From a virus (taxonomy: Duplodnaviria; Caudoviricetes), in IMG/VR virus record IMGVR_UViG_2806310659_000001, positions 13,142 to 77,141 of that record: 64,000 nt of DNA; one strand, 5' to 3'. A program made the translations under genes and the position numbers. Every line of letters begins with the position of its first letter. The first letter of the stretch is position 1. Positions 14,651 to 47,156 of this stretch are shown here, in pieces. The notes beneath the pieces are model-generated. The model was given only the letters and a program-made list of their open reading frames with translations, was not told the origin of the DNA and did not search any database.

Positions 14651-15826
14651 CTAGCTGACCGTGATCGCTACCGTGTCGGTGAGGTTGGCACCCGTCTGCG
14701 GGTCCACGTAGGTCGCCGTGATGGTCGTCGAACCAGAGGCGACGCCCGTGACCAGGCCGGTGCTCGCACCAACGGTCGCCTTGGTGGCGTCCGAGCTGGA
14801 GTAGGTGCAAGACGAGGTGCGGTTCACACCGTTACTGTCCTTGACCGTGATCTGCTTGGTGTGGTTGACACCGGCAGAAGCGGTCACCGTAGCGGCGGAC
14901 GGCAGGGCGGTGATGCCCGTGACGCCCAGCTTCAGCTTGGTCGCACGGATGAAGCGGTCACCCATGGCCGGTTCGGTGACGATCTTGTGACCCACGTAGG
15001 TGTCGATCAGGGACCGGTCGGTCAGGTTGACGTAGTCGTAGTCCGAGATCCAGCGCAGGGCGAAGCCCAGGCTCGACATGCTCGCGCCAGCGACCACCGA
15101 AGCGGGCTTGACGGGGGCAACGTTGGACAGAACGAACGCGGTCTTGTGGAACAGAACCGCCTCGTCGGTGGCCAGCGCGTTGGAGCGGATGACCTGCAAG
15201 CCGGCGATGTCCATGACGGTCGCGCGACGCAGGGCCTCGTTGCTGGCGTCACCGCTGTACTCGAAGTGACGGAGCTGCTTGTCCTTCAGCAGAACGCTCT
15301 CGAACGTCGAGCCGACAACCAGGGTGCGGTTGGCGTCCGGAATGTTCTCGTCGTTCAGGTACTGCCGGGCGTCCACGATCGACGGGAAGGTGTCATCCGC
15401 GTCGGTGTAGAAGGTTTCCTCGTAGGGGGCCGCGTTGAACAGGTTCTGGACGGTGTAGTCCTCCAGACCGTAAGCAACGGCGTCAGCCTGCGGAACGAGC
15501 ACCTGCTGGGTGAAGGACGCGATGTCCAACGTCAACTGCTCGTCGGTCAGGTTGACCGCGGAGTAAACGACGTTGTCCAGCGTCACCGGCAGGACGTACT
15601 CGATCAGGTCGTCCGCGGTGACGTTTCGGGCGGCGCCGGTACCACGGAAGGTACGCTCGCGCGACGCCAGAATGGCCGGGATGCGAACGTTGATGGTGTC
15701 GTTTGACGACCCACCGAAGTTAGCGATCGGGTTGGTCCAGATCAACTGCGGCAGGACGATCTTGCGCCGAAGCTGCGTCAGGCCGATTTCGGCCAGAAGC
15801 GACGGCTTCTGAAACACGTGTGCCAT
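14651..15826 (-). CDS. major capsid protein with C-terminal Ig-like extension
   Basis: 391 aa; DTINVRIP and YSAVNLTDEQLTLD P22/HK97-fold coat pattern; ~90 aa C-terminal Ig-like domain. Confidence 0.9.
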   Translation of the reverse strand: MAHVFQKPSLLAEIGLTQLRRKIVLPQLIWTNPIANFGGSSNDTINVRIPAILASRERTFRGTGAARNVTADDLIEYVLPVTLDNVVYSAVNLTDEQLTLDIASFTQQVLVPQADAVAYGLEDYTVQNLFNAAPYEETFYTDADDTFPSIVDARQYLNDENIPDANRTLVVGSTFESVLLKDKQLRHFEYSGDASNEALRRATVMDIAGLQVIRSNALATDEAVLFHKTAFVLSNVAPVKPASVVAGASMSSLGFALRWISDYDYVNLTDRSLIDTYVGHKIVTEPAMGDRFIRATKLKLGVTGITALPSAATVTASAGVNHTKQITVKDSNGVNRTSSCTYSSSDATKATVGASTGLVTGVASGSTTITATYVDPQTGANLTDTVAITVS

Positions 15827-16766: not shown

Positions 16767-17756
16767 CTAGCTAGCATTTAGCTTCGCGATCGTGTCGTCA
16801 TAGAACTGAACTTGTGGGGAGTCCTCCCCGAACCCGAGATTGATAAGGCGCTCTCGGTTGGCGCGCACGTTGCCCAAGTCGACGACTGGGGCGTCTTCGT
16901 AGGGCGGGGGCGGGACGTAGCCACGGCGGAAAGCCTTGACGGCGTCCTTCCCGCTCGAATTGGCAGTGAGTTTGTCCCACTGAGCCTTGAAGTATTTGGC
17001 TCGCTCGTCCATCGAGTCCTCCGTGCGGAAGACTGGACGTAGCGAGCACTTGCAGTGGTCGTGCACCGCGGCGATGTTGTTGCCAAAGTGCTTACTGACC
17101 TCGATGAACGAGTCCTGCTTGTAGACGGCGCCCCGTGAGGCGAGCATTGCGCAGAAATAGCACGGATTGGAGTCCGTGAACCGCGCGTATCCGATCACCC
17201 TGCGTTCACGCCGGCTGGACAGTTCCGATTCCGGAACCACCTCGGCGAGCTGTGTGGACTGCCGAACGGCCTCGCGACCGCCCTCAGTAGCCTCTTTCAC
17301 GCCGGCGCCGGTGGATGTCGTCTTGGCGTTGGCCATCGTCTGCCGCTCGATGCCGGCGGTCATCTCTTCGTTGTTGAGCGCCAGTACCCGGGTCGCGTGT
17401 TTGATCGCGGCCGGCCCCGTTACGGTCATCGACGCCCGGACTGAATCTGCCGGGAACGGGATGTATGGCGTGGGGATTTGACCCGCGGTGGGGTCAATTG
17501 CCCACAGCGAGTGCTGGACGAACCGAGTTCCGAGAGTGACTGACTTGGTGAACTGCTTTTCGAGTTCCAGCATCGCTGCGTGCAACCACGGTGGCGTGCT
17601 GCCGTTGAGGTCAGCGAACTTCAGGATCGGAAACAGGATGCCGAGGCCGGCCGCGGTTTGGGCGGCCAGTGCCTCTTGGTCCATTTGGTGTTGGAAGGCC
17701 AGCCAGAGCGCCAAGTCCTGCAATGGTTGCGGCTGGCTCTGCTGGGGCTGGGTCAT
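16767..17756 (-). CDS. MuF-like minor capsid / capsid maturation protein
   Basis: GYARFTDSNPCYFCAMLASRGAVY and HDHCKC motifs; follows the portal. Confidence 0.8.
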   Translation of the reverse strand: MTQPQQSQPQPLQDLALWLAFQHQMDQEALAAQTAAGLGILFPILKFADLNGSTPPWLHAAMLELEKQFTKSVTLGTRFVQHSLWAIDPTAGQIPTPYIPFPADSVRASMTVTGPAAIKHATRVLALNNEEMTAGIERQTMANAKTTSTGAGVKEATEGGREAVRQSTQLAEVVPESELSSRRERRVIGYARFTDSNPCYFCAMLASRGAVYKQDSFIEVSKHFGNNIAAVHDHCKCSLRPVFRTEDSMDERAKYFKAQWDKLTANSSGKDAVKAFRRGYVPPPPYEDAPVVDLGNVRANRERLINLGFGEDSPQVQFYDDTIAKLNAS

Positions 17757-19177
17757 GCCGTCTGTACCGCCCGGTTACCGGGCTGCCGGTTCGGCTGGGG
17801 CGCGTTGGCACCCTCGCCGGCGGGGACAGGCTGGTTAACGCCCCAGTACTTGAGTTCCTTGTCCGTTGGATCGTCGGACTCGAAGTACTCATCCCACTCG
17901 GCGGCTTCCTCCTGCGTGGTGATCTTGCGCCACAGCGCGCGGGCGGGAGCACCCAGCAGGGCGTGGGCCTTACCCCAGGCATCGACGAGCTGGCCGAGGG
18001 AGCGCACGTCGGCGTCGATCCACGTCACGGAGGCGTGGTAGTCGTTGGCCGCGGCCTCATCACCCTCGATCCTGGCGCCGAGGCGCAGGAGCGTGTTGTG
18101 GCCGTCGCCGAATGTGACCTGGCGGGCTGCGATCTTGTTGCGGGTGTTGGCTCGCATCTGCTCCAGGGCGTCCGGACCGACGTTGGAGGCGCCGCCGCTC
18201 CAGTTCGGGGGGAGCTGGGCGGAGTCCTCAAGGTCGCTGAGGTCGCGCTCGTAGGCCTGGATGATGTCGCCCATGGGGGTCGCGTCCAGGGTTCCGAAGC
18301 GGCTTTCGACGCTCGTGCTGACCAGGGTTTCGGACTGGGAGAGCTGCTGGAGGAATTTATCCTGGCTCACGTCGGAGTCGGTGTTGTCCAGGCCGGTGGC
18401 CCAGCGCACGCGCCAACTGTTGAAGTGCTGAATCAGCAGGCGGTCAAATTTGGTCTTGTCCAGGCAGGAGGCGACGGAGATGAGGTCTTCGACCTCGCCC
18501 TTGATAATCCCGTCGAGGTCGATCGTGTTGACGTAGCGCACGATCGGCGTCACGCCGATGTTGTGCTCGGTCGTCGTAATGGGCGCGTTCTCGGGGAACA
18601 TGCCGAGCTTCGACATGGGGATGTCGTAGTACTCGTGGTCGTTATAGAAGCGGACCGTCGATCCGTTGGGCAAGATCTCCAGCGCGTACACCGGGTAGTC
18701 GTCGGCGACCTGGTCCTCGTAGAGGCCGAAGCAGCGCATCGGAGACAGGCCTCGAAGAACCGCCTTGGCGCCCTCCTCTTCGCCGGGCAGTGCGCGGCCG
18801 AAGGCGAAGCCGTACCGCAGTGCGGCGCGGTGGATGGACATTTGGCGTGCGTGCATCCGGTTGGCGTTCCAGGTCTCCCACGGGCCGGCGACGTTTCCTG
18901 TCGAGCCCTGGGTGCGGTAACCGTCGACCAATAGCGTCTGGGTGAAGGCCTCGACCACCAGGGCGAGCCAGGGGGTCTTGGCGAGGTTCATCAGCGCCCG
19001 CTTCTCCTTGCTCGCGTGAGCGGGGACAAGGAACTCGGGCTTGTTGATGTTGCGCGACCAGGCGTGGATGTATTCCAGCCGCTGTCGCTGCTTCTCGAAG
19101 TGCTCCCACACGACATCGTTCAGGTACTGCCTGACGTTGGAGGCGTTGATGTCGGCCGGGATCTCAATGCTGGCCAT
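17753..19177 (-). CDS. portal protein (SPP1 gp6-like)
   Basis: 474 aa, WETWNANRM..Q..IHRAALRYG and HNIGVTPIVRY motifs; follows TerL. Confidence 0.9.
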   Translation of the reverse strand: MASIEIPADINASNVRQYLNDVVWEHFEKQRQRLEYIHAWSRNINKPEFLVPAHASKEKRALMNLAKTPWLALVVEAFTQTLLVDGYRTQGSTGNVAGPWETWNANRMHARQMSIHRAALRYGFAFGRALPGEEEGAKAVLRGLSPMRCFGLYEDQVADDYPVYALEILPNGSTVRFYNDHEYYDIPMSKLGMFPENAPITTTEHNIGVTPIVRYVNTIDLDGIIKGEVEDLISVASCLDKTKFDRLLIQHFNSWRVRWATGLDNTDSDVSQDKFLQQLSQSETLVSTSVESRFGTLDATPMGDIIQAYERDLSDLEDSAQLPPNWSGGASNVGPDALEQMRANTRNKIAARQVTFGDGHNTLLRLGARIEGDEAAANDYHASVTWIDADVRSLGQLVDAWGKAHALLGAPARALWRKITTQEEAAEWDEYFESDDPTDKELKYWGVNQPVPAGEGANAPQPNRQPGNRAVQTA

Positions 19178-20676
19178 CAGGAGACCCCACCGATCAGTAG
19201 GCGCCCCGGCTTTTTGGTGTTCAGGGTTTCTTCAACTCCTTCAAGAGTCAGAGCGCGGTTCGCATAGGAACACGCCACAATCCCGGTGATGTCGATGGAG
19301 GTGGACTTGCGTAGCCAGCCCCAGCCCCCGACAAAGTCGGGATTGCCGATGTTGTATTTGGAGGCACCCGCGAGGCCGGCCAGAAGTGCCGGATCGTCGA
19401 TGTGGGTGACCTGCGCCCCGTAGATGTCGTCCTCGAACTGCATCGTCGCGTGCGCAACGTCGGTGGTGCCGAAGTACTTGACCTTGTAACCGATCTGCTC
19501 CAGCTCGGGTCCAAAGACGCCGGCCTGTCCGCCAAGTTGCACGACGGCGACCTTGGGCGGGTTGGAGGAGGTGATCAGTTTCTGGGCGGTCGGGATAATC
19601 CAGTTGGTCCCCGAGTCCGCGGCGACAACCTCGACGTGCCGGCGGCCATCGGGCCACCATTCGGCAATCGCAATCGAGCCCCGCTGGCGGTCCGGTGACA
19701 CGTCCACGCAGATTGCGCGGTTGAGTCCGTCATCCGGCGCCATGTCGACCGTGCAGTTCTTCCACGCATTCAAGTCGATGATCGCGCTCATGGCCGGGTC
19801 GTCCCACATGCCAAGGTGCTCGCGGGCGAACTCCTTGATGCCGAGCTTGTGCTCGTACTCTTCCCGCAGGAAGTCGACCGGGCAGATGCCACGGACACCC
19901 AGTGACGGGTTGGCCCGCTTCCAGTTCTCGAAGTCGTGCGGGTCTGACCCCTCTTCGCAGGACCATTCGGCGAACATGAGGCTCGCTTCCGGGTCCGGAT
20001 TGGCGTGCAGCAGCTTCCCGCGCTCGCGGATACGGATCAGGACTTCGGAGCCCTCGGTGCCGGCCGACGTGGTGTACCACGTTTGCGGATTGATCGAGGC
20101 CTGCTGAAGCGATGACAGGGAGCCCATCATCACGTCCTCAAGGGCGAAAGCCTCGTCGAGGACCATCAGATCAATCTTCGTTCGACCACGCTTAGCGTTC
20201 TTCCCGCGGGCCACGTAGTGGATGAATCCGGCCTTCTTGTTGCCCTTGGTCGGGTCGTGGCGAATCGACATCTCTGCGGCGCCCGTTTTGTGGGGCGTAA
20301 TGCACTCGTCTTCAAGCTCCTCGCAGTTGCCAATGAAGGTGGTCAACTCGCGAAAAGCGTCGCGTGCAGTGTCGAACTCGTGGGCGGAGTGCATGATGCG
20401 CTCGCCGAGCAGGAATAGGCCGGCCAATTGGCGGGCATAGACGCAAACGTTCTTGCCGTTCTGCCGCGGCGCGATCAGAAGAACCGATTTGGCGCACCAG
20501 CGGGTGTCGACGTTCTGCCCCATCGACTTGCGAACGATCATTTCCTCCCACGGGAGGAGTTCGAGACCGCAAATGCCAGCTAGGTCGATCGCGTCGTCGC
20601 CGAGAGTGGTGAAGTATGCAGGGTAGTGTTCGAGGCGCGGGGTCTGATATCCAATCAGACCGTCCATGGCACCCAT
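19177..20676 (-). CDS. terminase large subunit
   Basis: Walker A APRQNGK, Walker B MVLDEA, TTSAG, W..ANPSLG, nuclease CVDVSPD. Confidence 0.95.
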   Translation of the reverse strand: MGAMDGLIGYQTPRLEHYPAYFTTLGDDAIDLAGICGLELLPWEEMIVRKSMGQNVDTRWCAKSVLLIAPRQNGKNVCVYARQLAGLFLLGERIMHSAHEFDTARDAFRELTTFIGNCEELEDECITPHKTGAAEMSIRHDPTKGNKKAGFIHYVARGKNAKRGRTKIDLMVLDEAFALEDVMMGSLSSLQQASINPQTWYTTSAGTEGSEVLIRIRERGKLLHANPDPEASLMFAEWSCEEGSDPHDFENWKRANPSLGVRGICPVDFLREEYEHKLGIKEFAREHLGMWDDPAMSAIIDLNAWKNCTVDMAPDDGLNRAICVDVSPDRQRGSIAIAEWWPDGRRHVEVVAADSGTNWIIPTAQKLITSSNPPKVAVVQLGGQAGVFGPELEQIGYKVKYFGTTDVAHATMQFEDDIYGAQVTHIDDPALLAGLAGASKYNIGNPDFVGGWGWLRKSTSIDITGIVACSYANRALTLEGVEETLNTKKPGRLLIGGVS

Positions 20677-28456: not shown

Positions 28457-28698
28457 GTATGCGTTCCGTAGGCCGTAAGGCTATGTTCTGCGTACTCGCG
28501 GCGCTAGTGTTCCTGTCGGCGCCCGACGCTAAGGCTGACCCGAGCTGTCACCCTGGCGCGTGGAACAACACGTGCGGGACATGGCCCGGGCAATTACAGC
28601 CAACATGGGAAGTACCGCCCTACGGCGGATGGGGCTACGGGCCGCGGTCACCGATCGCGTGCAATCCGATTGACCTCACCTGCCAGCCGTACACATGA
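28453..28698 (+). CDS. putative secreted Cys-containing protein
   Basis: Signal peptide ending APDAKA-DP; four Cys in the mature part. Confidence 0.6.
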   Translation: MSMRSVGRKAMFCVLAALVFLSAPDAKADPSCHPGAWNNTCGTWPGQLQPTWEVPPYGGWGYGPRSPIACNPIDLTCQPYT

Positions 28699-32906: not shown

Positions 32907-33701
32907 TCAGACCGGCCGCAGCTCGGTTGTGTAGAGCATGCGCCTACCCTTGTTCCACTTGCCGCATGGGCAGAGATAACGCGGGTACTTGTACGAGGTT
33001 GTGTACTGGTAACCCCTGCGCTGCATCTCCGACTCGGGACGGCTGCACTGCGTGCAACGGATCTCGCCATCGCCGGCGGTGTCCTCGTACAGGGCGAAGT
33101 TCTCACCAATCCACGGCAGATCGTTCTCGAACAAATCCTCGGTGATCTTCACGTCGTGGATGTTGTACTGCTTCATGGTCCGCTGTGCGGCGCGGCGGGT
33201 GGCCCGATTGCCGTAACGGATGTCGTCCCAGAGATCCGTGCCGCCGTGCTTGACCTTCTCGTCATGCAAGACGTGCCGGGCCGACCAGTTCAGGGACTGG
33301 CTCATCAGGCCGCGGGAGAAGTTCTTCTTGGAGATCTTCTTCAGGTCGATGCTGCGGTAGGGTGCCGGCCGGCGCCCCCAGAGGCGGCGGAACTCGGCCT
33401 GGAACCATTGCAGATCGAACACGTCGCCATTGAACGTAACGACGAAGTCAGCCTCGTCGAGCAGATCGAACGCCACTTGGAGCATGGCCTCGTACTGTTC
33501 GGGGATGACGTGGTAGTTTTCGTCTTCGTCCCAGGCGGCCTTGAAGATCGTCTTATCCTCGCCGCGCCACTTTGCGGCGAAGCAGAGAATGCGCGTCGGG
33601 ACCAGGATTCGGTCCTCGTGAATGTAGTTGGAGAAGCGGTCGAAGACGCCGGCGATACCTCGCTGAGTCTCGATATCGACGGTGAGTATTTTCGCGGTCA
33701 A
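32907..33701 (-). CDS. DnaQ/RNase H-like 3'-5' exonuclease
   Basis: ExoI TVDIET, ExoII TFNGDVFD, ExoIII YNIHDV; C-terminal Zn ribbon. Confidence 0.85.
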   Translation of the reverse strand: MTAKILTVDIETQRGIAGVFDRFSNYIHEDRILVPTRILCFAAKWRGEDKTIFKAAWDEDENYHVIPEQYEAMLQVAFDLLDEADFVVTFNGDVFDLQWFQAEFRRLWGRRPAPYRSIDLKKISKKNFSRGLMSQSLNWSARHVLHDEKVKHGGTDLWDDIRYGNRATRRAAQRTMKQYNIHDVKITEDLFENDLPWIGENFALYEDTAGDGEIRCTQCSRPESEMQRRGYQYTTSYKYPRYLCPCGKWNKGRRMLYTTELRPV

Positions 33702-33713
33702 ACCGCTGTCCCC

Positions 33714-34232
33714 CTATTCCGGGATGATCTCGGTGAACGGCCCCGACTCGTCGTACTCGGTAAGGCACTCCCCGGCAAGGGTGCTGCCCCACCGCCAGTG
33801 GCCGTCAACATACGTCCAGGTATCACCGTCCGCGTCGATTACCTTGACATCGGTCGGAACCTCAAGCATCGACCCCCAAACGCGCGGCTTGCGTTCGCCG
33901 GCGTCGTAGAGAAGGGCGAACTTGATATTTCCGGTGTCAAAATTCACACTAGTGAAGTCGAACTTCTTCGGCTCTGTCGCGATCTCCCCGCCAAGGGCGA
34001 GGTAGCCGGCGCCGTCGACCCAACTGTCCACATGGTCCGGAGAGGTGAGTAGTCGGGCGACCTTGACCTGGTTCATGCAGAGGGCAACCTGCTCGGGTGT
34101 GACCGTGGTGCCCAAGATCGGCTCCCACAGCTTTCCGATGCGGGTGAAATTGTCCCGCATGTTGCCGTACGCCTCTTCACGGTCACCGCAAATGAGCGAT
34201 GCCGCGGTGGTCAGAATCTCGTCCTTCTTCAT
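33714..34232 (-). CDS. DUF6378-like protein
   Basis: GDREEAYG..NFTRIGKLW..VALCM..KVAR..DSWVDGAGY. Confidence 0.75.
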   Translation of the reverse strand: MKKDEILTTAASLICGDREEAYGNMRDNFTRIGKLWEPILGTTVTPEQVALCMNQVKVARLLTSPDHVDSWVDGAGYLALGGEIATEPKKFDFTSVNFDTGNIKFALLYDAGERKPRVWGSMLEVPTDVKVIDADGDTWTYVDGHWRWGSTLAGECLTEYDESGPFTEIIPE

Positions 34233-34711
34233 GCGTATTCCCCGCAGCCGTTGTGATGGGTGAAGTAGCGCCAGTGGACCCAGCCCTTCGGGCACCAGAA
34301 GCCCCACTCGCGGAGCTTGGGTCCGGTAATGATCAGGGTCCAGACCGGCTTTTCGCGGCCGGCGACATCGGGCAGGAGTTGTATCCGGTGAGTCCAATCG
34401 GCGGACCGATAGGCAATAGACCAGCGACTGCGCCACCGCAGACCGGTCACGCCAGAAGGGGCGGCCGGGTCGTCTACTGGAACGTGCTCCAGATACTCGC
34501 CCTTCAGGATCCAACTGAAGAACCACCAAGGGTGGTCATGCAACGCCCGGTCCTCGTCGGAGCGGAGGAACTTGTGAAGGTAAATTTTCAGGAGGCGGTT
34601 ATGCGGGAGCACGAACCAGCGCAGCAGGTAAGGATCGTCTGCCTCGCCAATTACATCATGCGGCTCGAACCGCAACCACTTCCGAAACCAATGATGGTTT
34701 TCGTTTGCCAC
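34229..34711 (-). CDS. cupin-like protein
   Basis: YLHKFLRSDEDRALHDHPW..GEYLE..HRI..WTL. Confidence 0.7.
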   Translation of the reverse strand: MANENHHWFRKWLRFEPHDVIGEADDPYLLRWFVLPHNRLLKIYLHKFLRSDEDRALHDHPWWFFSWILKGEYLEHVPVDDPAAPSGVTGLRWRSRWSIAYRSADWTHRIQLLPDVAGREKPVWTLIITGPKLREWGFWCPKGWVHWRYFTHHNGCGEYA

Positions 34712-34732
34712 AAGTTCCCCTTTGTGGACGGA

Positions 34733-34960
34733 TTAAGAGAAGATCGCTTTCCAGAGGCGCTTACCGATCGGATCGGCCCACCACGGGAGCGAGTTGAGGA
34801 GGTGCAATGCAACCCCTGCAATGACCACCCGGGTCAGGATTGGGTGGGTCAATAGCCATTCGTCGACAACGACGGAAAGTAGTTGGTCCTCTTCGCACGA
34901 GAACTCGTAGGCGATGATGCCCGCGGCCATGATTGCCCAGGCCTGCTTGCCGGTGATCAC
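34733..34960 (-). CDS. small membrane protein (start approximate)
   Basis: AW..AAGIIAYE..LLS..HP..ALHLLN pattern; two hydrophobic segments. Confidence 0.55.
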   Translation of the reverse strand: MITGKQAWAIMAAGIIAYEFSCEEDQLLSVVVDEWLLTHPILTRVVIAGVALHLLNSLPWWADPIGKRLWKAIFS

Positions 34961-35154
34961 GAGACCAGCCAAGGGCGCGGGGCTCCGAAGATCAGCTCCC
35001 AAAACTCAGGTTCCGGGAGGGCCGTGTCGTCCTTGCGGGAAGCCATGCATACGCGACGGTCCCTGGTCTTGTCGGGCCACTGCCGGCGCCAGTGCGAGCC
35101 CCCCATCCACGATGGGCGTCCAGCTCCGCAGTCGGGGCAGGTTTCGGCGAACAT
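34957..35154 (-). CDS. hypothetical protein
   Basis: AGGGAG RBS before ATG; CPDCG. Confidence 0.5.
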   Translation of the reverse strand: MFAETCPDCGAGRPSWMGGSHWRRQWPDKTRDRRVCMASRKDDTALPEPEFWELIFGAPRPWLVS

Positions 35155-35431
35155 CGGTACTCCCTGGATCGGGGGTTGCAAGTTGAGGCCGGCCCGTGGC
35201 GCGCGAACAGGGGCCGGCCGGGGCGCTTCGACCCGCGGGGAGCGCCCAGCCTGGAAGTTGGAAGGAGCCTTTTGGTAACCCGGTGACTCACGCAGGGTGG
35301 CGGCCACTCGACAGCCTCTCTGGGGCTGTTCGCCTGCACTCATCCGGGACCGCGGAGTTAAAGGGATAACCCACCACTAGCCGCGGGGTTCGGCGTTTTG
35401 TCAGGCGGAGCCGTTCCAAATCAACCGCCCG

Positions 35432-35513
35432 TGGAGATGTTCGGTGCTGCCCCGAAGTCTTGCCTGGTGCCGCGTGCGGCTTTCGTCAGACAATCGAACC
35501 TGGTCGCATCCCC
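35432..35513 (-). ncRNA. minimal tmRNA: tRNA-like domain only, no mRNA-like domain
   Basis: GGGGATG/CATCTCC acceptor stem with G3.U70 and A73; stemless D-loop CGACCAGGTTCGA; helix TTGTCTG/CAGGCAA; GAC connector; T arm TTCGG-GGCAGCA-CCGAA. Confidence 0.85.
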
Positions 35514-35518
35514 TAGTT

Positions 35519-36296
35519 TGGAACCGGGCTGAGAATACACCCGTCCACAGTGACCTTTACCGGATTATTGGTTCCCGGCTTTTCCACGTCATTCCTGAAC
35601 GTAGTCACCACGCCCGGTCGGTTACGCCGACCACTCGTTACACCGAAAGCTACTCCGCGACGTTTGTTTCACACTGGATTCGCGGGTCCAGCGCTGCACT
35701 ACTTGTCTACGAACCACCGTCGCCTTGCGGGCTCGTGATGGCCCTGGTTCCGTAACGGCCAGGGATTAGAGGCGCTTTTGCTCCTCGGCGGGGGAAGAAC
35801 TTTGGCTTGTTTCTGTTCTCAAAACAGGAAATGGTGAAATATAAGCAATTTCGTTCTAACTAGAGACGTGCTTCCCCATGAAGGTCCGCACCCTTTTGAG
35901 GTACAGAATGCTTCACGCCTCTCGTGCTTCAGGCTGGCGACCTGTTTCGCACTCTACTCAGCCGTTCCCGAGCCGTCGCCCGTTACTAAGCGTTTTCATG
36001 GAACCCGCCCTTGCCCGCCAAGGCTTGGACTGAGACCCCCTCCGCACCACAAGGAGCTTGACCGATAGCCGTTTCTTCCCGCACGTACGGGTTGGTGGTC
36101 CCACTGGTTCACAGCCCTGGACCCTGGCGTATCTCGCCCCCTGGCAGCCCCCGAAGGAACTGCTCAAGGATTGGATTGCATGGGGTACCCTCTCGGGCGG
36201 CAAGGTTGTCAGCCTCGCCTTTCAGCATCTTGCGATGCCTTATCCGCCATGCCGGAAATGTGCCCGTTCAGTCGGTGGGCTAACCGATGCAATCCT
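35519..36296 (-). ncRNA. large structured non-coding RNA, GOLLD-like
   Basis: ~780 nt with no credible ORF; many stems closed by GNRA/UUCG loops on the minus strand; long-range helix GGATTGCAT/ATGCAATCC; upstream -10; adjacent to a tRNA-like gene. Confidence 0.7.
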
Positions 36297-36297
36297 C

Positions 36298-36330
36298 ACT
36301 ATATGAACCGAAATCCTCGAATAGTGAACA
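36298..36330 (-). promoter_or_regulatory. putative promoter of the ncRNA block
   Basis: -10 TATAGT at 36303-36298; weak -35 TTCACT with 19-nt spacer. Confidence 0.45.
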
Positions 36331-36492
36331 TTGCATACGTTTACAGCTCGTTTGAGGCCTGTCCCTGCCTCACCCCGTGAGCCACGCGGGGGCCGTCCGT
36401 TCTGGACACCCTTCAGGACAATCAGGTGCTCTCTCGGTCACGGCAACCGCCACGTTTTCTCTGCGCAACGGCGAAACGTGGAAACCGGGTCT

Positions 36493-36861
36493 TTAGGTCT
36501 GCATCAGTTCGGTGAGCGATTCCCGCTCGCGCCTGACGCGCTCATACTCTTGCTCAACATCCCTCGGCAGTGTTGGCCCCTGCGCGATGACGGGACGGCC
36601 CGACCAGACGAGGTTGTCTTTGTGGGGGTCCTTGCCGGCGCGGAACTTGACACGGTATCCGCGGCACATGGGATGGCCGTAGTAGGCGCGGGCCACAAGG
36701 TCGTGGACCATGCAGGTGGATTTACCGATGTCGACCTGGAGTGAGCCATTGGCAGCACGGCGCAGTTTCTTGAACCGGCGCCGGCGCTCGTCCCATATCC
36801 GGCCGTCTGGCGTTGCCCGGTAGCCGGCATAGCCGGGGATGGCGGCTAACTGCTCATCCAT
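36493..36861 (-). CDS. NUMOD4/HNH-like protein (degenerate)
   Basis: IPGYAGYRATPDGRI..VHDLVARAYYG..DNLVW. Confidence 0.65.
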   Translation of the reverse strand: MDEQLAAIPGYAGYRATPDGRIWDERRRRFKKLRRAANGSLQVDIGKSTCMVHDLVARAYYGHPMCRGYRVKFRAGKDPHKDNLVWSGRPVIAQGPTLPRDVEQEYERVRRERESLTELMQT

Positions 36862-36923
36862 ATTCGATTTTGGGTAGCAAGTCTCTACCTTCTAGTTAAG
36901 CATGCTTGAGCATTCTCACGGTT

Positions 36924-37124
36924 TCACTCGGAGTCGCCTATCGGCACCACCGCCGGGTAGCTCGTGTCCTCGTCCACATACCACTCGCCGGCGTCATAGT
37001 CGGCGTGGGCAAAGTCGTTCTGCGGCGCCTCCTCCAATGCCTGGAATATGGCGTCGTCCTCGGAATCGGCCTCAACCTCGACGACAGTTGAACCGACGAA
37101 CTGGATACATACGCGGTACTTCAT
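36924..37124 (-). CDS. small acidic protein
   Basis: VEVEADSEDDA motif; RBS present. Confidence 0.6.
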   Translation of the reverse strand: MKYRVCIQFVGSTVVEVEADSEDDAIFQALEEAPQNDFAHADYDAGEWYVDEDTSYPAVVPIGDSE

Positions 37125-37530
37125 TCGCGACCCTTTTCAGTAACGGGACCATGGAACCTCAAACGGTTCCGTGTCCACCCCTTTGGACGCCCACACGAAC
37201 ACCTGCGTCCGATATAGCCAGCCGGTGTGAACCTCAATGCGCCCCCAGTCGGTTAGCACCGCGGCAACGCGCGTTGGCTCGCGTAACCCTTGCCAGGCCT
37301 TGCGGGTGACCGTGAACCGCTCCTCGTGCCAGCCGTCCTTGTCGGACCATCTGATTACAAAAACGTAATCGGTGGGCCAGTCGGCGGGCATACCAGGGAC
37401 TTTGACCTCGACCTGCCTCACCTCAACTTGGCGAATCGGTGGCCTTTTCACCACGATTTCCGATAGGTCGGCGTCATCCGGCAGGAAACAGGGCTCCATC
37501 TGCTCATACAAATTACAGCGCCACACAGTC

Positions 37531-37863
37531 CTACCTCCCCGCCCGATAGGCCAGGACATCGCCCAGCCGGAATAGCGTCCTGCCGTCTTGCTTGTGCTTT
37601 GGGATCAAATCCGGATGCCGGCGTGCCCAGTCGTGAACATTCCAGGGCTGGAGTCCGAACTCTTCGGCGATCTCTTTCGCCGACATCAGTCGGTTTACGT
37701 CAACCGGCGTTTCCGAACAGACCCAGCCCTGGCCCCAGTCCCGCATGTTGTCGTCGACAATCCCGCAGACCGAGGCATCGCACAGCATCAGGTTCTCGCG
37801 GTAGAAGTCAATGATTCGACGTAGGCGGTCCTGGGCGCTGTCCTGCGGCCAGGGCCAAGTCAA
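37531..37863 (-). CDS. HTH DNA-binding protein
   Basis: LMSAKEIAEEFGLQPWNVHDWARR..LFRLGDV (MerR/HTH_17-like). Confidence 0.7.
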   Translation of the reverse strand: MTWPWPQDSAQDRLRRIIDFYRENLMLCDASVCGIVDDNMRDWGQGWVCSETPVDVNRLMSAKEIAEEFGLQPWNVHDWARRHPDLIPKHKQDGRTLFRLGDVLAYRAGR

Positions 37864-38118
37864 GCCGCCAACACCCGCTGAAACAGCTCGATTACCTCAT
37901 CCTCGGTGCGGTTGGGCTCACGCTCCCATTCCAGGACGGGCTCACCCAGCTCGTCGGACAGGACGTTGAGGGCCTCGATATAGCCGTCGAACGCCTCCAG
38001 ATTGGTCCATGCCAGCGTGGTCTCAGTGAGGGAGTCGTGGATGCACCACCCCACAGCGTAGGGGTCGACGATCCACGGCGGGCTCCAGCCGTCCTCCAGA
38101 AGGAGCTGGAGCGCCAAC

Positions 38119-38814
38119 CTAACCGATCTCATCGACGAATCCGATCTCCAGCGCCTCCGTGGCGCTCAGCCACCAATCCTTACGGGTCCAGCGCGTCCGG
38201 AACTCGTCGGCGGTGATCCTGCCGCCCGAGCGGGCCACGAAGATGTCGGCCACGCCGGCGCGGACCATCTGAATCCACTCCAGAGTGTCCTCGATCTCCC
38301 CTACCTTGCCGCGGGCGCCAGAGGCCGGCTCGTGCACGAGAAGATGGGCATGGCGGCCGATCACGCGCCAATCGGCGGCCTGGAGCAGGATCGCGGCCAT
38401 GCTGGCGGCGTAACCCCGAACCGTCATGGTAACGAAGTGGCTACCACCGCCGCGGGTCGAGTAGTTGTGGATCTCGTCGAACAAGTGCATCCCCTCCACC
38501 GTCGAACCGCCCGGGGAGTTGATGGTGATGTTCATCGGGCAGAACGGGTGCAGGCGGTCCCAAGCCTGGAGAGTGGTCAGGGCCTGGTAGACGTTGTCGA
38601 TCCTCACCTCCCCGTAGAAGAGGTGATGGAATTGCAGGTAGTCCTGCGTCGTGGCCAGATCCTCGGCGCGGCGACGCTCCGCCAAATAGATCTCCCGGAT
38701 ATCGGCGTCAGCCCTCTTCTCGCGGAGCTGCTCCCGGTAGAGGTCGGCCTCGGCCTCCAGATTGGCGATCAGCGCGGCCTCGTGGGCGGGGCTGACGGCG
38801 AGCTTGTCGTTCAC
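38119..38814 (-). CDS. ClpP-like protease
   Basis: ITINSPGG, GYAASMAAILLQA, LLVHEP, DWWLSATEALEIGFVDEI. Confidence 0.9.
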   Translation of the reverse strand: MNDKLAVSPAHEAALIANLEAEADLYREQLREKRADADIREIYLAERRRAEDLATTQDYLQFHHLFYGEVRIDNVYQALTTLQAWDRLHPFCPMNITINSPGGSTVEGMHLFDEIHNYSTRGGGSHFVTMTVRGYAASMAAILLQAADWRVIGRHAHLLVHEPASGARGKVGEIEDTLEWIQMVRAGVADIFVARSGGRITADEFRTRWTRKDWWLSATEALEIGFVDEIG

Positions 38815-39040: not shown

Positions 39041-39754
39041 TCATGCTGCACTCTCCTGAAGGGCGGTTACATCTGCGAGGGTCAGACCGGTTTCGTATTT
39101 CCATTGGCGGTACTCGCGCAACTCCGCCGCCATCTTTCGTCGGTCCATCGTTACATGACACTTCCTACACATCGGCATGTAGAACTCGGGATAGAGCGAA
39201 TACCGCATTAGTGAGCCAGAGCCCGACCCCTTACCAGGCCCCAATATCTCGGCCGGATCAGTCCCGTCATAAGCCCAGTCCTTAGCGTTTTCCCCGCACT
39301 CAATGCACCGGTAGCGGCTTGCAGGTCCCCATAATGTCCGAACCCTGACGTGCGCGGCGGTGAAGTCGCAAGGACTGGCCAGCGTATTGCGAATGGGCGC
39401 GTCAACGGAAAGCGACGTATCTCCGCGTGCGCGAGACCAATGCAATCGGCAATATCCGTGCGCCTTATGCTTTCGATCGCACCCCTCGATCCGGCATCCG
39501 CGATCAGGATCAAAGATCCTAAGCGGGCCGTCGATATCACACCCCTGGCGGAAGCGTTCGTAGTGGCCACGGCAGTAGCCCCTGACCGTGGACAGGCGGT
39601 CACACCCCTTGGCTGTGCACAGCTCGGGATAGTCGGGAACGCGATGTCGCTGGTTCATATCAGCTCCGCGGCGCGCCCGCTGGTAATGAGCACTGCAATA
39701 GCCGAGCGATCGGACCTTGCGGTCGCACCAGTCCACTTTACAGATACTTGTCAC
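39041..39754 (-). CDS. HNH-type endonuclease with three Cys/His repeats
   Basis: Three CxxxxCDRxxxxxGYCxxH repeats; AHVRV..WGPAS..CIECG..WAYD..PMCRKCH. Confidence 0.75.
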   Translation of the reverse strand: MTSICKVDWCDRKVRSLGYCSAHYQRARRGADMNQRHRVPDYPELCTAKGCDRLSTVRGYCRGHYERFRQGCDIDGPLRIFDPDRGCRIEGCDRKHKAHGYCRLHWSRARGDTSLSVDAPIRNTLASPCDFTAAHVRVRTLWGPASRYRCIECGENAKDWAYDGTDPAEILGPGKGSGSGSLMRYSLYPEFYMPMCRKCHVTMDRRKMAAELREYRQWKYETGLTLADVTALQESAA

Positions 39755-41073
39755 GCGACCGATTCCATGTCCAGCTCGCCCCTGTCGAGCAGCTTCGTTT
39801 CGTGTTCGAGGAATACTTGTGACTTGGCCTTTAGCAAGACCGGAACCAGGCCCTCCTGACGAATTACCACTCCCTCGTCGACCGTCTTGGGGTCGGATAG
39901 GGGAAGCACATCAGGATTGACCTCACCGTACAACTCGGCATAACTCCGGTCCATGAACGAGTCGACAATGTCGTCCGTGGTGTCACCGGTGGTGTCGTAT
40001 TCCGGATCGAAGTCATGGATGAAACGGAACAATTCCGGTGTCCACTTCAGCCCGCGCTCCTGGCAAAACTGCTTAACGCCATCCCACGAGAGGTCGCTTA
40101 GGTGACCCTGTCGGTTGATGTGAGCGACGCGATAAACGTATAGTTCCGCTTCGTTCCGAGCCAAGTGATACGTGTAACCCCTTTGAAGAGGAGCACCGTC
40201 AGGCGTCCAGCCGATAAGCTCGCCATAGACAATGAATCCTTCCGGGATTAGGTTGGCAACCCTCTTGCCGTATTCGGTCCAGAGGTCGAATTTGTAGAAA
40301 TGCTCCTGGTTCGGGTTGTTCGGGTCCTTGATAACCTTTCGTGAGCCGAAAACCACGTCGTACTCCCACTCGGGGATGTTCACGCCGAGGCGCTTGAGCA
40401 GCTTCTCATACCACTTCAACTGGCGAAGGACCGGAACCCTCCCGCCACGCCAGGATGTCCCGTGGAGCTTCTGCGTGATGACCACTTCCCGGCCGGCGCG
40501 CAAGACGTGCCTGGAACGGAAGTAACTGTCAGTTTCGAGGTGCTCGGGAAAGACTTTCTTGTCCACGCGCTTAAACGCCCGCTCCACCTTCGACCTGGCG
40601 GGCTGGCCGGCCTTGCGGGGCAGCTCGTACTTCTTGCAGATCTCGTGGTCGCCGATCTTGTCGAACAGCACCACCGGGTGGCTTACGTCGGCCAGCTCGG
40701 CACGCAGCTTGTCGATGTCCAGGCCGGTGTAGGCCAGGGACTCCAGCGGCATGAGGAGTGCGTTGGAGCGGTGCCCGCGGAGTTTCAGCGCCTTGATGCG
40801 GCGGTTGTCCTCCAGGTAACCCGTCTCGCCCTCGTCCTTGTTCAGGTCGGCATGGCGGAACAGGTTGTTCTGGTGGGCGTAGTCGTCGCTCAGTTGCGTT
40901 TCCGCGGTGAACAGCACGCGGAGTTCCCCGGCCTCAATCCCCCGCTGTGTGAGGGCCTGGTGACCGAGAATGGGGATGCCGACAAGGTTGTCCAGCCCGG
41001 GCAGGTCCACCGGGGCGGGAACACGGACGATGGTGGCCGCGTAGTTGACGTTGGCCGGCTGGTCGAATTTCAT
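39751..41073 (-). CDS. RNA ligase (DRB0094/Rnl2-like)
   Basis: Motif I TQKLHGT, VYGELIG, EGVVIR, LKAKS. Confidence 0.85.
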   Translation of the reverse strand: MKFDQPANVNYAATIVRVPAPVDLPGLDNLVGIPILGHQALTQRGIEAGELRVLFTAETQLSDDYAHQNNLFRHADLNKDEGETGYLEDNRRIKALKLRGHRSNALLMPLESLAYTGLDIDKLRAELADVSHPVVLFDKIGDHEICKKYELPRKAGQPARSKVERAFKRVDKKVFPEHLETDSYFRSRHVLRAGREVVITQKLHGTSWRGGRVPVLRQLKWYEKLLKRLGVNIPEWEYDVVFGSRKVIKDPNNPNQEHFYKFDLWTEYGKRVANLIPEGFIVYGELIGWTPDGAPLQRGYTYHLARNEAELYVYRVAHINRQGHLSDLSWDGVKQFCQERGLKWTPELFRFIHDFDPEYDTTGDTTDDIVDSFMDRSYAELYGEVNPDVLPLSDPKTVDEGVVIRQEGLVPVLLKAKSQVFLEHETKLLDRGELDMESVA

Positions 41074-44233: not shown

Positions 44234-45667
44234 TCAGAGCAGGTTTTCGTTTATCTTTGGCTCCGATATTTGGGCCAGGAACCACGCCGTAGGAACGCTT
44301 CCGCCCTGTCCGCCACGGTGCCCGTCGACTTTCGTCAAGACCCCTCGCTTGACGAGCTTGTCGAGCTGCCGCTGCGCCTTCTTGCACTGCGCATCAGTGG
44401 GGCGGGGGGTGTCGTACAACTGCTTGGCAGCCTCCTTGGCGGTCAGCCCGTCCGGGCCGGCGCCGTTGACCGCTTTCGTGAAGTCGAACTTCACCACCTC
44501 CATCCGCCCCTCCTCGGGGAAGTAGTGGAGATGCCAGGGACCCACCTCGTTGGCGGGCTGCTTGACGTGGTGGAACCTCACCACCAGATCACCCGGGTCG
44601 CCGGTCAACTGAATGACCGAGCCGGCCCCAGAGGTCAGCCACGTCGAGCCGAACACGTCGTTGATCCCGACCGGTCCGTTCTGCGGGTTGGCCTTCCTGT
44701 TGTGGTGCAGCTCGCAGATCTGCACGCCGCGTGCCAGCAGTGCTTGTCTGGCCCGGTTGTAGGCCGCGGCCGTGGCGTCCTCGGACAGCCCCACCACCGC
44801 GTCCTTGAGCGAGTCCACGTACACCGTGCCGGCGCCAGCCTCCAGCGCCATCCTTGCCAGCAGGGATGGGTCCACTGCCAGGTCGGAGATGGGCGGACCG
44901 GGGCGGAACAGTAGCCGGCCCGTAACTCCTGCCATCTCCTCGGCATCGAACTGCCGTCTCATCGAGCGGCGGATCTGTCGTGGGCGGTCCATCGCCAGGT
45001 ACAGGATGGGTCTCTCGGAGCAGGCGATAGGCAGACCGAGGACCGTGCTGTCGAGCCCGAGCTGTCCGCGGACGAGCATCCCGGCGAGGGTGGTCTTACC
45101 CAGCCCCATACCGCCGGCGATCATCAGTGCCTCGCCCTCGGCCCAGAGGATGTCATCGCCGTCGCCCCACACGATCACGCTGCGATCGTCGGCACCGAAC
45201 ATCCACTCCGCGCCGTCAACGGGAGGGAAGTTTCCCCAGACATCGATTGCTGGAGCGGAATCGCCTTCCACTGGCCGCTGGGGACCTCCCCCGATAGATG
45301 ACACCGGCGAGGGCGTAGCGGCGCGCTCAGGGACCATGCGGGCGCCGACCTTCGCATCGGCCCCGGCGAAGCCCGAACGAATGGTGGCCTCGATCTCATG
45401 GTCGTCCAGGCCGGCATTGCGGGCGGCTAGTGTGAGAGTGTCCTCGACGGTATGTTTGTCGATGGCCCCGGCGTTAATCAGGCCCCCCATATTGAACGCT
45501 GCTACGTTCAGGGTGTGATTGCGCACCCCTTCCGGGGCCACCTCCACATTGCGCGCCTCTAACTGGAGGGCTGCCGCGGCGTAGGCGTTGTTCGGGGCGA
45601 CCGGGTTGGCGATCTTCCTGGGCTCGGGCTTGGGCTGTTCAACGCGCTGAAGGAAGCCGGTAGTCAA
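44234..45667 (-). CDS. primase C-terminal domain plus RepA-like (AAA_25) helicase
   Basis: EGVRNHTLN..A..AGL..EIEATIRSG PriCT-like domain; Walker A GGMGLGKT; VYVDS; LHHNRK; FGS. Confidence 0.85.
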   Translation of the reverse strand: MTTGFLQRVEQPKPEPRKIANPVAPNNAYAAAALQLEARNVEVAPEGVRNHTLNVAAFNMGGLINAGAIDKHTVEDTLTLAARNAGLDDHEIEATIRSGFAGADAKVGARMVPERAATPSPVSSIGGGPQRPVEGDSAPAIDVWGNFPPVDGAEWMFGADDRSVIVWGDGDDILWAEGEALMIAGGMGLGKTTLAGMLVRGQLGLDSTVLGLPIACSERPILYLAMDRPRQIRRSMRRQFDAEEMAGVTGRLLFRPGPPISDLAVDPSLLARMALEAGAGTVYVDSLKDAVVGLSEDATAAAYNRARQALLARGVQICELHHNRKANPQNGPVGINDVFGSTWLTSGAGSVIQLTGDPGDLVVRFHHVKQPANEVGPWHLHYFPEEGRMEVVKFDFTKAVNGAGPDGLTAKEAAKQLYDTPRPTDAQCKKAQRQLDKLVKRGVLTKVDGHRGGQGGSVPTAWFLAQISEPKINENLL

Positions 45668-47156
45668 GTCCCTCCTCCAGTACGCGCTGCACGTCCTCGA
45701 ATGTCTGCCAGCTCAGGAACTGGCCGTCCTGCCAGACGGGCTGGAGCAGGCTTCGTCGTTCCGCAGACTCGCCGGCCTCCTGAACCAGGACGAGGCCCCC
45801 GCCAAAGGCATTCGCCCGGCGTCCTACCGCGAGCCGGCCGGTAGCACTCGTCTTGGTGCCGTCATCGGTGATCGGGTCCTTCTTGAGGTTCACGCCCTCG
45901 CCGTCGACCTCCGCCCAGGTGGCTTTCATCGCCGAACCGAACGTGTCGCGGGTCTGGTACTGGTAGCTGAACGAGCCCACGCCGAACACCACGTTGGTCG
46001 AGGCGTAGCACAGTTGCCGCATCCTCTCGGTGATCGAGCGGGCGCGGTCGAGCGTGATCGAGTCGCCGTAGATGGCGCCGACGTGCGAGTCCAGTTCGAT
46101 GAAGCCTCGGGCGTTCTTGTGCCCGCCGAAGGTGTTGTAGAGCAGGTTCAGCACGCCCCACCACTCGTGGGACATGTATGGCGCCTGCGGGTTACCACAG
46201 AGGATCTTCTCCGGGTCGCCCGAGTCGGGGCGGATCACCAGCTTGCCCTCACGTGTGAGGATCTTGTTCTTCAGCGCCGGCAGGTAGGTGGCCAGCACAC
46301 GCCACAGGTCGAACGTGTCGGACACGATCGAGACCGTCCCCTTGGGGTACAGGTCCAGCAGACGGTTGATCGTCTCCAGCTCCCCCACGGTGGCGATTCC
46401 GGTGCACATGACCGAGTGCTCGGTGGCCGGGACCGACTGGGCGGAGTAGAACCCGCCGTAGTAGCGGTCGATCCAGTCCAGGGAGACCAGGGAGTCGGTG
46501 CCGAAGAATGACAGCAGGTGGCCGGCGCCCGACGCCGCGGCGGACTCGTGCGAAGACATCCCCCGGTAGGAGAAGTCGTGGCACTGGTAGTTCACGGCCG
46601 AAGGGGCGGCGCCGGTCAGCTTGGCCGCCTCCTCCAGGATCTTGCGATACTCACGGGCGATCGTCGCCGAGGTGGACGCCTGCCAGATGCCGGCCGACAG
46701 CCCGGTCTCGACGAAGTTTGTCAGCCAGAAGAACCGCGGGTCGGTGTTCTCCACCGTGAAGGACGGGATGCCGATCGGAACCGGCGTGCCCTCGGGGATC
46801 GAGCAGAACCGCAGGGGCAGGTACCCCAGCTTCCATAGCTCCCGAACGTGCTCCGAACCGATCGACTCGGCGGCCGGGATACCGAGCACCTGCGCGATGC
46901 GCCCCTCGTAGAGGTCGCACACCTCGTCCACATCCGACTCGAAGAACGGCTCCCACTCCTCCATCAGGTACTTGCGGAGGTAGGCCTGCAATCCGAAGTG
47001 GACCACGTGGTTGACGCCGGGTATGCGCGACTTGCGGTTGGTGTAGTTGGAGTAGACGCGGGTGACGTTGCCGCTCAGTTGGTATTGCCGAAGATGGTCC
47101 AGCTTGTAGGCGTCAGTGCGAAACAGGGGGGCAACTGGCTCGTAGAGCGTGTTCAC
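45639..47156 (-). CDS. NAMPT-like protein (probable NARP1 Namat)
   Basis: TDAYKLDH, HDFSYRG, SVPATEHSV, VSIVSDTFD, VIRPDSGDP, IYGDSI, VFGVGS. Confidence 0.9.
   Translation of the reverse strand: MNTLYEPVAPLFRTDAYKLDHLRQYQLSGNVTRVYSNYTNRKSRIPGVNHVVHFGLQAYLRKYLMEEWEPFFESDVDEVCDLYEGRIAQVLGIPAAESIGSEHVRELWKLGYLPLRFCSIPEGTPVPIGIPSFTVENTDPRFFWLTNFVETGLSAGIWQASTSATIAREYRKILEEAAKLTGAAPSAVNYQCHDFSYRGMSSHESAAASGAGHLLSFFGTDSLVSLDWIDRYYGGFYSAQSVPATEHSVMCTGIATVGELETINRLLDLYPKGTVSIVSDTFDLWRVLATYLPALKNKILTREGKLVIRPDSGDPEKILCGNPQAPYMSHEWWGVLNLLYNTFGGHKNARGFIELDSHVGAIYGDSITLDRARSITERMRQLCYASTNVVFGVGSFSYQYQTRDTFGSAMKATWAEVDGEGVNLKKDPITDDGTKTSATGRLAVGRRANAFGGGLVLVQEAGESAERRSLLQPVWQDGQFLSWQTFEDVQRVLEEGLDYRLPSAR

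Follow-up and report, generated by a model that had tools for sequence, protein, structure and literature searches.

This work identifies an 82-nucleotide (nt) gene in a mycobacterial prophage as a member of a conserved, covarying family of RNAs of the type known from Mycobacterium phage DS6A, which comprise only the tRNA-like domain (TLD) of transfer-messenger RNA (tmRNA) and lack a tag reading frame. The assignment is supported by homology, by compensatory base changes and by the score of a covariance model built without the element. The element, here called the mini-tmRNA, lies on the minus strand at 35513..35432 of the window, by which we mean the whole 64,000-nt stretch of DNA that was analysed (positions 13,142 to 77,141 of IMG/VR record IMGVR_UViG_2806310659_000001). 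Trans-translation by tmRNA and SmpB is the main bacterial ribosome-rescue and protein-tagging pathway, and a phage RNA restricted to a copy of the tmRNA entry half would be a compact means to hijack or blunt it. This kind of RNA has been known from one phage, DS6A, since 2009, and the window holds a divergent new member. What is new is the step from the single phage example named in the literature to a family with covariation and a conserved inner core, a subgroup with an alphaproteobacterial-type T-loop that is invisible to the Rfam tmRNA model, a direct linkage to GOLLD RNA, and a large class of such elements in viral contigs.

Counted to the discriminator base A73, the mini-tmRNA matches base by base the reading of an earlier first-pass annotation made from the letters of the sequence: the minus-strand sequence, the stems, G3.U70, A73, the stemless D-loop, the GAC connector and the 20-nt insert were all confirmed (Table 1). 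Its remark that CCA is not fully encoded was also borne out, as A73 is followed by CGG, with C74 (35431) encoded and the remainder of CCA absent from the DNA. The minimum-free-energy fold has the same layout. At the place of the mRNA-like domain of a tmRNA, the mini-tmRNA has 20 nt inside helix 2, with no resume codon, tag frame or pseudoknots, and this core contains no stop codon. It does not form a tRNA cloverleaf either: the inner hairpin loop is 4 nt long, and the element is neither called by ARAGORN nor matched by Rfam RF00005 at E <= 10. The mini-tmRNA is single-copy in the genome.

Relatives were sought with the pattern ACGAAA-NCCG-CACG-CGGN-AC, which has two variable bases and describes the inner core that the window and DS6A share independently. 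In viral contigs this core scan gave five matches, four of which are members, DS6A among them, and in metagenome contigs it gave 75 matches with 11 members, including one exact duplicate. Among 185,579 species genomes, the 44 matches contained no member and are chance matches, many of them within one conserved Nocardia gene. Together with the window, the family thus counts 15 distinct sequences, namely the window, DS6A and 13 further relatives from viral and metagenome contigs.

The structure of the family is backed by compensatory change. In an ungapped, unfitted alignment of the eight homologues of 82 nt, standard pairs fill 184 of 184 cells, and 14 of the 23 pairs show changes at both partner bases; not one of the five measures used is reached by any of 500 shuffles, and slid registers pair at most 49.5%. 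When all 15 sequences are aligned under guidance of the model, pairing extends to 98.2% of 342 cells, with changes on both sides in 16 of the 23 pairs. A MAFFT alignment of all 15 (A2) shifted length differences to the 5' end and was left out of the pair counts. Both alignments thus uphold four helices of 7, 7, 4 and 5 bp. Within the acceptor stem, G1-C72, G2-C71 and G3.U70 are kept in 15/15 members, while pairs 4-7 covary. The search pattern did not select for G3.U70 or A73, yet both are kept in every member; C74 also follows A73 in 15/15, and the full CCA is encoded in one. The first-pass annotation had stated that homologues losing the stems and G3.U70 would speak against it, and the counts above fall on its side in both respects.

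Two covariance models extend this comparison. The first, R1, was made from the eight 82-nt members and gives every one of the 16 member copies a score of 60.7-103.8 bits, seven distinct sequences outside its training set among them, against at most 30.2 bits for 109 chance loci with the same 20-mer. The second, R2, was made from the 10 members whose T-loop is canonical, leaving out the window and its T-loop subgroup, although its source alignment (A5) was guided by R1, which had included the window. R2 finds the mini-tmRNA as its only match in the window, over model positions 1-82 of 82, at 75.3 bits and an E-value of about 6.5e-15; the 3' ends of full-length phage tmRNAs score at most 28.5 bits with it. 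The earlier claim of a phage mini-tmRNA that has a tRNA-like domain without a tag frame is in this way upheld by homology, covariation and model score.

It is this comparative evidence that carries the case beyond chance, since the single sequence alone left it open. A tRNA-like fold arising by chance in GC-rich intergenic DNA could be argued from an ordinary fold energy (z = -1.14, with 27 of 200 shuffles equal or better) and from the silence of standard tools. ARAGORN reports no tRNA or tmRNA gene in the window, and an Rfam scan of 35380-35560 at E <= 10 returns the GOLLD tail as its sole match and nothing from the tmRNA and tRNA families. At this threshold the mini-tmRNA stays below the gathering score of 47 bits of Rfam tmRNA (RF00023) and has no match anywhere in the tmRNA clan. 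Against a chance fold stand 75.3 bits from a model built without the window and the covariation, and we find the idea hardly credible. This candidate is refuted by the covariation over 8 and 15 homologues together with the R2 score.

The relation to DS6A is close in the core and divergent elsewhere. The first-pass annotation had mentioned a similarly reduced gene in this phage, and this holds: PMC4131195 lists 'Mycobacterium phage DS6A (TLD only)' and PMC11915505 has a corresponding entry, Phage__Mycobacterium.9. The gene is unannotated in JN698994, where Rfam tmRNA matches 28478-28560 with 43.2 bits (E = 5.3e-14), 20 nt covering 312 model positions in the alignment. It reads GGGGCCG - loop ending GGTCGA - CCGCCG - ACGAAAACCGCACGCGGTAC - CGGCGG - CAC - GCGAG TTCGATT CTCGC - CGGCTCC - A. 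The 20-nt core of the window, ACGAAAGCCGCACGCGGCAC, is identical to that of DS6A at 18 of 20 positions, and both differences belong to one compensatory pair, A-T to G-C. The acceptor, helix-2 and T stems also differ through paired changes. On this sequence comparison, the mini-tmRNA and the DS6A gene are homologous.

Rfam tmRNA and ARAGORN miss the mini-tmRNA because of its variant T-loop, GGCAGCA, which departs from the canonical TTCRANY of tmRNAs. Among the 15 members, the T-loop is TTCGAYT or TTCAATT in ten and GGCRGYA in five (the window, L021, L083, L108 and L115). For each of the ten canonical members, Rfam tmRNA gives an end-to-end match of TLD-only type at 29.2-68 bits, seven of them above the gathering score (L023 68, L118 67.3, L098 64.5, L095 60, L019 58, L073 53.6 and L130 53.2 bits) and three below it (DS6A 43.2, L091 41.4 and L092 29.2 bits); all five GGCRGYA members are missed. 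The statement of the first-pass annotation that a GGCAGNA-type loop occurs in alphaproteobacterial tmRNAs agrees with the Rfam alpha_tmRNA consensus, which reads GAC CCGGG GGCgGUA CCCGG and then the acceptor strand, and with four alphaproteobacterial tmRNAs, three with GGCGGUA and one with GGCAGUG. Working tmRNAs therefore use a loop of this type.

Other searches by similarity returned little. With the element and its flanks, blastn against phages gave chance matches alone (E ~5); DS6A is missed by it because the longest word in common is 10 bases. A megablast of 33000-38000 against phages had no match, nor did tblastn with the downstream 128-aa open reading frame (ORF) and with a 552-aa ORF against a phage collection that may lack records close to the genome of the window. 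A pattern demanding both GGTTCGA and GGCAGNA had no match in viral contigs. Across 300 scored genomes from the genus, among them G000, searching by DNA gave no copy of the element and two weak GOLLD matches alone, apart from G000's own match.

Two scans of viral contigs that did not use the core gave at least 119 and at least 120 loci. Among the 238 loci listed, at least 135 carry an element that combines a perfect acceptor stem of 7 bp, including G3.U70, with A73, a TCGA loop, GAC and a T arm; these elements are mostly 75-82 nt long and comprise at least 100 distinct sequences. The conserved marks are not independent evidence in this wider set, because they were partly forced by the patterns. 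The inner segments vary, most being A-rich and continuing with RCC, a small hairpin and GG(R)A(A/C). Of the 135 listed elements, ARAGORN reports three as tmRNA and the remaining ones as neither tRNA nor tmRNA, which flags a systematic gap in phage annotation; another tRNA or tmRNA lies within 1 kb of 16 of the 135. By these scans, TLD-only tmRNAs form a large class among viral contigs, and this class offers many natural variants for testing how tag-less tmRNAs act. In the literature searched for other phage TLD-only or tag-less tmRNAs, mentions of DS6A alone were found. PMC11915505, a 2025 database paper, screened RefSeq viruses, and its text, as far as available, names DS6A only; its supplements may list more.

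Some further observations concern individual members of these sets. A near-identical 78-nt TLD-only element with T-loop GGCAGTA is present in 17 of the viral contigs listed (L152, L171, L197, L200, L209, L219, L226, L227, L231, L234, L235, L239, L248, L250, L251, L257 and L258) and looks like an abundant phage lineage. The members in L073 and L091 sit in tRNA arrays. The motif GTTGAACACC lies directly upstream of the mini-tmRNA in L098 (~1920-1937) and downstream of it in L130 (~1003-1025), and a variant, TTTGAACACC, directly precedes the L083 mini-tmRNA (~1082-1099); in those phages, the shared motif may act as a promoter or represent an operator-like repeat.

The mini-tmRNA stands directly behind a complete GOLLD RNA, which the first-pass annotation had left unremarked. 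The conserved 3' domain of GOLLD is encoded on the same strand and ends 12 nt before the mini-tmRNA. Searching with GOLLD by blastn gave 32 records at 60-80% identity, from Cluster-M-type mycobacteriophages and three M. abscessus prophages, with alignments that end at the GOLLD 3' end. In seven of the seven mycobacteriophage loci examined, an annotated tRNA follows ~10-16 nt after GOLLD, a distance estimated from BLAST coordinates. It is tRNA-Phe in prophi86-1 and prophiGD54-2, tRNA-Arg in Bongo, an annotated Ala(cgc) in Aziz, Rey and Estes, and an 81-nt 'Undet' with a Tyr-like look in Nanosmite. Two low-GC viral contigs, selected by pattern for a G-rich start, have tRNA-Met after GOLLD, and related phages have a similar short spacer (...CAACAAT) between GOLLD and tRNA. 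The mini-tmRNA therefore occupies a conserved tRNA-after-GOLLD slot. By analogy, its processing is probably the same as that of GOLLD-flanking tRNAs. An HNH endonuclease gene lies upstream of GOLLD in the window, and PMC6582537, in the part available, describes mycobacterial tRNA clusters with GOLLD that also carry an HNH gene.

From this slot, 12 nt after GOLLD and filled by a tRNA in all seven related loci, and from the lack of any other tRNA in the window, it could be argued that the element is mere tRNA-like punctuation: a handle for RNase P and RNase Z at the GOLLD 3' end, or a GOLLD appendage, with no rescue role of its own. Any tRNA would suffice for that purpose, however, and the tmRNA-specific layout would be unneeded. 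Moreover, 13 of the 15 members have no GOLLD in the surrounding DNA examined, yet they keep the same structure, core and marks for alanyl-tRNA synthetase (AlaRS). We regard punctuation as quite improbable.

Full tmRNAs occur up to ~1.5 kb upstream of GOLLD in 5 of the 7 mycobacteriophage loci examined. Their presence in the same arrays of related phages, and the frequent integration of phages at ssrA, would suit a decaying remnant, be it a pseudogene of a full phage tmRNA, a captured fragment of host ssrA or an attachment-site relic. Compensatory changes over 15 diverged sequences, in contrast, point to selection on the fold, and broken stems or indels are present in 0/15 relatives. Both halves of the acceptor stem are present and the element differs from the ends of host ssrA; the integrase gene lies ~27 kb away, at 62551-63897. 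A remnant is therefore very unlikely in our view.

The neighbourhood also raises the thought that GOLLD and the mini-tmRNA form one unit, in which the TLD would be linked to, or delivered by, the 14-mer cage, so that many SmpB- and AlaRS-binding domains would be displayed. The thought stems from the 12-nt spacing, from L091, from the full tmRNAs near GOLLD in five of seven loci and from remarks in a preprint. In L091, a metagenome contig, one strand (634-1794) carries a mini-tmRNA, two tRNAs and a GOLLD that contains a nested tRNA and is truncated at the end of the contig (105.3 bits); the mini-tmRNA lies ~750 nt upstream of GOLLD. The cryo-electron microscopy preprint (bioRxiv 10.1101/2024.12.08.627333) notes that the cage could expose tRNAs linked to it, and also that ribosomes came down with GOLLD in a pull-down. 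A single unit of this kind is a long shot, and if true it would tie GOLLD function to the capture of ribosome-rescue machinery or stalled ribosomes in phage growth. By its position, the mini-tmRNA links ribosome rescue with GOLLD RNA.

Several side observations touch GOLLD and its slot. The L091 mini-tmRNA holds the position of the full tmRNA in Cluster M phage arrays. The 'tRNA-Ala(cgc)' genes of Aziz (L016 1731-1803), Rey (L017 1741-1813) and Estes (L018 1648-1720) have C1-G72 and G3-C70, and their identity is doubtful because they are without the G3.U70 needed by AlaRS. In L009 (~4170-4260, minus strand), a sequence resembling tRNA-Met follows a GOLLD 3' end; its T arm is good and ARAGORN does not call it, and it may be a further degenerate tRNA-like element occupying this slot. 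The first hairpin of the GOLLD 3' domain (35863-35921, minus strand, 59 nt) is identical in contigs of three RNA libraries, from soil, compost and rhizosphere, where its flanks are unrelated and one flank is tRNA D-arm-like; judged by these sequences, it is a very conserved GOLLD module. A 103-aa ORF (window 35444-35755, plus strand) runs antisense over the mini-tmRNA and GOLLD, and many Cluster M phage records have a 'hypothetical protein' annotated beneath the GOLLD match; both are probably false gene calls over RNA genes.

As to function, we consider it probable, on the sequence features described, that the mini-tmRNA vies with host tmRNA for SmpB and for stalled ribosomes but brings no tag, as an alanylated RNA that is co-transcribed with GOLLD and processed by RNase P. 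It would be transcribed together with the upstream GOLLD, and an RNase P cut at its first G would produce both its own 5' end and the 3' end of GOLLD. The 3' end would be trimmed and CCA added, as with the CCA-less tRNA genes of the host, whose tRNA-Ala genes likewise lack the full CCA. Charged with alanine and bound by the single SmpB of the host, the RNA would compete with host tmRNA for SmpB and stalled ribosomes, and without a reading frame no degradation tag would be added. The net effect would be that host tagging is blunted in phage growth, while ribosomes are perhaps still freed. Charging appears to matter because the G3.U70 wobble is strictly kept while neighbouring pairs covary, and this therefore favours action on the ribosome over simple titration.

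The main rival is a pure SmpB sponge, which would titrate SmpB, and perhaps AlaRS or EF-Tu, without being charged or entering the ribosome, and so shut trans-translation down. The first-pass annotation had noted that TLD-only RNAs inhibit trans-translation, and passages of PMC4131195 and PMC11915505, both citing Mao et al. 2009, say so for the DS6A-like molecule. Of the two mechanisms put forward in the first-pass annotation, a decoy for SmpB and a tag-free acceptor of stalled peptides, either would suit what these papers state on DS6A. In the account of PMC4131195, such a molecule is a strong inhibitor of tmRNA in E. coli 'whether or not chargeable', and may act through titration of SmpB; the sponge is kept as main rival on account of these words, and the single SmpB of the host suits it as well. 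The retention of G3.U70 and A73 in 15/15 members amid freely covarying acceptor pairs is hard to square with irrelevant charging, and C74 is kept just as strictly. We therefore rate a pure sponge as rather unlikely, ahead of the other alternatives.

Several points weigh against competition by a charged mini-tmRNA, besides the ordinary fold energy and the empty ARAGORN and Rfam results. The quoted inhibition 'whether or not chargeable' favours a simple decoy, for which the ribosome step is unneeded. The T-loop of host tmRNA is TTCGATT and that of the mini-tmRNA GGCAGCA, so that mycobacterial SmpB and modification enzymes may or may not accept the latter. Position alone is the basis for joint transcription with GOLLD and for the RNase P cut. 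The invariance of the core in the 13 extra members is not independent evidence, because they were found through the core. In the material searched, no data on expression, end-mapping, charging or SmpB binding were found for any family member. Eight sequencing runs are listed, each with 0.04 of the sampled words; the four examined (X1, X3, X4 and X5) cover 35859-35978 only, a conserved GOLLD hairpin of roughly 60 nt whose flanks in the runs are unrelated, and not the mini-tmRNA, which gives no evidence either way on its expression.

The window belongs to contig C44 in a genome of 5.0 Mb and 94 contigs and represents a prophage, as PHROGs matches confirm (Table 1). The host ssrA is 366 nt long and encodes the tag ADSHQRDYALAA, with a single smpB adjoining it; its tmRNA has GGTTTCGAC at the D-loop position and a GAC connector before the T arm. 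A search for a prophage SmpB, ArfB-like or RF-1-domain gene found none in the prophage; its matches in the genome were host smpB and two RF-1-domain genes on other contigs, which we take to be prfA and prfB. The prophage encodes an RNA ligase and a nicotinamide phosphoribosyltransferase, both of which are usual in phages that mend cleaved RNA or replenish NAD once host defence has acted. DS6A and prophiGD54-2 carry RtcB-like ligases, and the RNA ligases are consistent, as context only, with phages facing RNA-cutting defences of the sort that the first-pass annotation had invoked. A ClpP-family gene, situated among the early/replication genes at ~15 kb from those for the head, may or may not encode a prohead protease; Clp proteases degrade tmRNA-tagged proteins.

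Table 1. Features of the window, with the parts of the mini-tmRNA and of the GOLLD locus (window coordinates)
Feature	Position	Strand	Basis or remark
Tape measure	5234-10972		PHROGs
Major head protein	14651-15826		PHROGs
Portal	17753-19177		PHROGs
Large terminase	19177-20676		PHROGs
Mini-tmRNA gene, tRNA-like domain only	35432..35513	-	R1 100.6 bits; R2 75.3 bits
Discriminator A73	35432	-	Kept in 15/15
Acceptor stem 3' strand CATCTCC, U70	35433..35439	-	Covariation, 15 homologues
T arm: 5-bp stem, 7-nt loop GGCAGCA (35445-35451)	35440..35456	-	4/5 stem pairs covary
GAC connector 5' of T arm	35457..35459	-	A56, C57 invariant; G55 in 14/15
Helix 2 3' strand CAGGCAA	35460..35466	-	Covariation, 15 homologues
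20-nt core: ACGAAA, 4-bp hairpin, loop CACG, AC	35467..35486	-	Replaces pseudoknots and tag template of full tmRNA
Helix 2 5' strand TTGTCTG, tmRNA helix 2a equivalent	35487..35493	-	7/7 pairs change on both sides (15 homologues)
D-loop analogue, stemless, 13 nt, 3' end GGTTCGA	35494..35506	-	TCGA invariant in 15/15 homologues
Acceptor stem 5' strand GGGGATG, G3 of G3.U70	35507..35513	-	Pairs with 35433-35439
Spacer GOLLD/mini-tmRNA, 12 nt, GGTTCCAAACTA	35514..35525	-	Between GOLLD 3' end and first G
GOLLD RNA, conserved 3' domain	35526..35923	-	Rfam RF02032, 215.6 bits (gathering 150), model positions 1-416 of 416
Further 5' part of GOLLD locus	35924..36097	-	blastn to prophi86-1 and two sister prophages from query base 4 (window 36097)
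HNH endonuclease gene, upstream of GOLLD	36493..36861	-	phrog_959, E = 1.8e-12
ClpP-family protease gene	38119-38814	-	PF00574, 83.3 bits; PHROG 'head maturation protease'
Rnl-type ATP-dependent RNA ligase	39751-41073	-	PF09414; phrog_968
Nicotinamide phosphoribosyltransferase	45639-47156	-	phrog_448
Serine integrase	62551-63897		PHROGs

Among known systems, the DS6A gene is the nearest. It has the layout of the mini-tmRNA and nearly its size (80 versus 82 nt to A73), with G3.U70 and A73, a stemless loop ending in TCGA, a short helix 2, a connector of purine-AC layout and a 5-bp T stem; the full CCA is unencoded in both, and both come from mycobacteriophages. The two differ in the T-loop, that of DS6A being the canonical TTCGATT, with which Rfam tmRNA finds it, and that of the window the variant GGCAGCA, with which it does not. 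Helix 2 of DS6A has 6 pairs and its connector reads CAC. The DS6A gene follows 11 nt after a protein gene and the window gene 12 nt after GOLLD, of which no match was found in DS6A bases 1-50000 at E <= 1.

The tRNAs that are nested in or flank GOLLD, as described in available parts of bioRxiv 10.1101/2024.12.08.627333 and PMC6582537, occupy the slot directly 3' of GOLLD as the mini-tmRNA does. Unlike them, the mini-tmRNA is not a decoding tRNA, lacks an anticodon arm and receives no ARAGORN call. The layout of the tRNA-like domain was further compared with host ssrA and five phage tmRNAs. One-piece tmRNA (RF00023), host ssrA included, shares with the mini-tmRNA the acceptor stem with G3.U70 and A73, the GGTTCGA loop, helix 2a, GAC and the geometry of the T arm; the mini-tmRNA differs in having 20 nt in place of ~280 and a non-canonical T-loop.

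The acceptor piece of the alphaproteobacterial two-piece tmRNA (RF01849) resembles the window in its GGCRGYA-type loop, the GAC before it and the G+C-rich 5-bp stem. Its gene is circularly permuted and has a tag template, whereas the window gene is unpermuted, has no tag and belongs to the prophage of an actinobacterium whose own tmRNA has the canonical T-loop. To RF02544, the tag-less tmRNAs of jakobid mitochondria, the Rfam scan at E <= 10 showed no sequence relation, given that the release includes this family, as is assumed here. In architecture, these RNAs and those of Mallomonadaceae plastids are like the mini-tmRNA, with little beyond the tRNA-like domain and no tag frame, although they are organellar and not phage-borne. 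As far as the available text of PMC11915505 goes, these organellar tag-less tmRNAs are thought still to act with SmpB.

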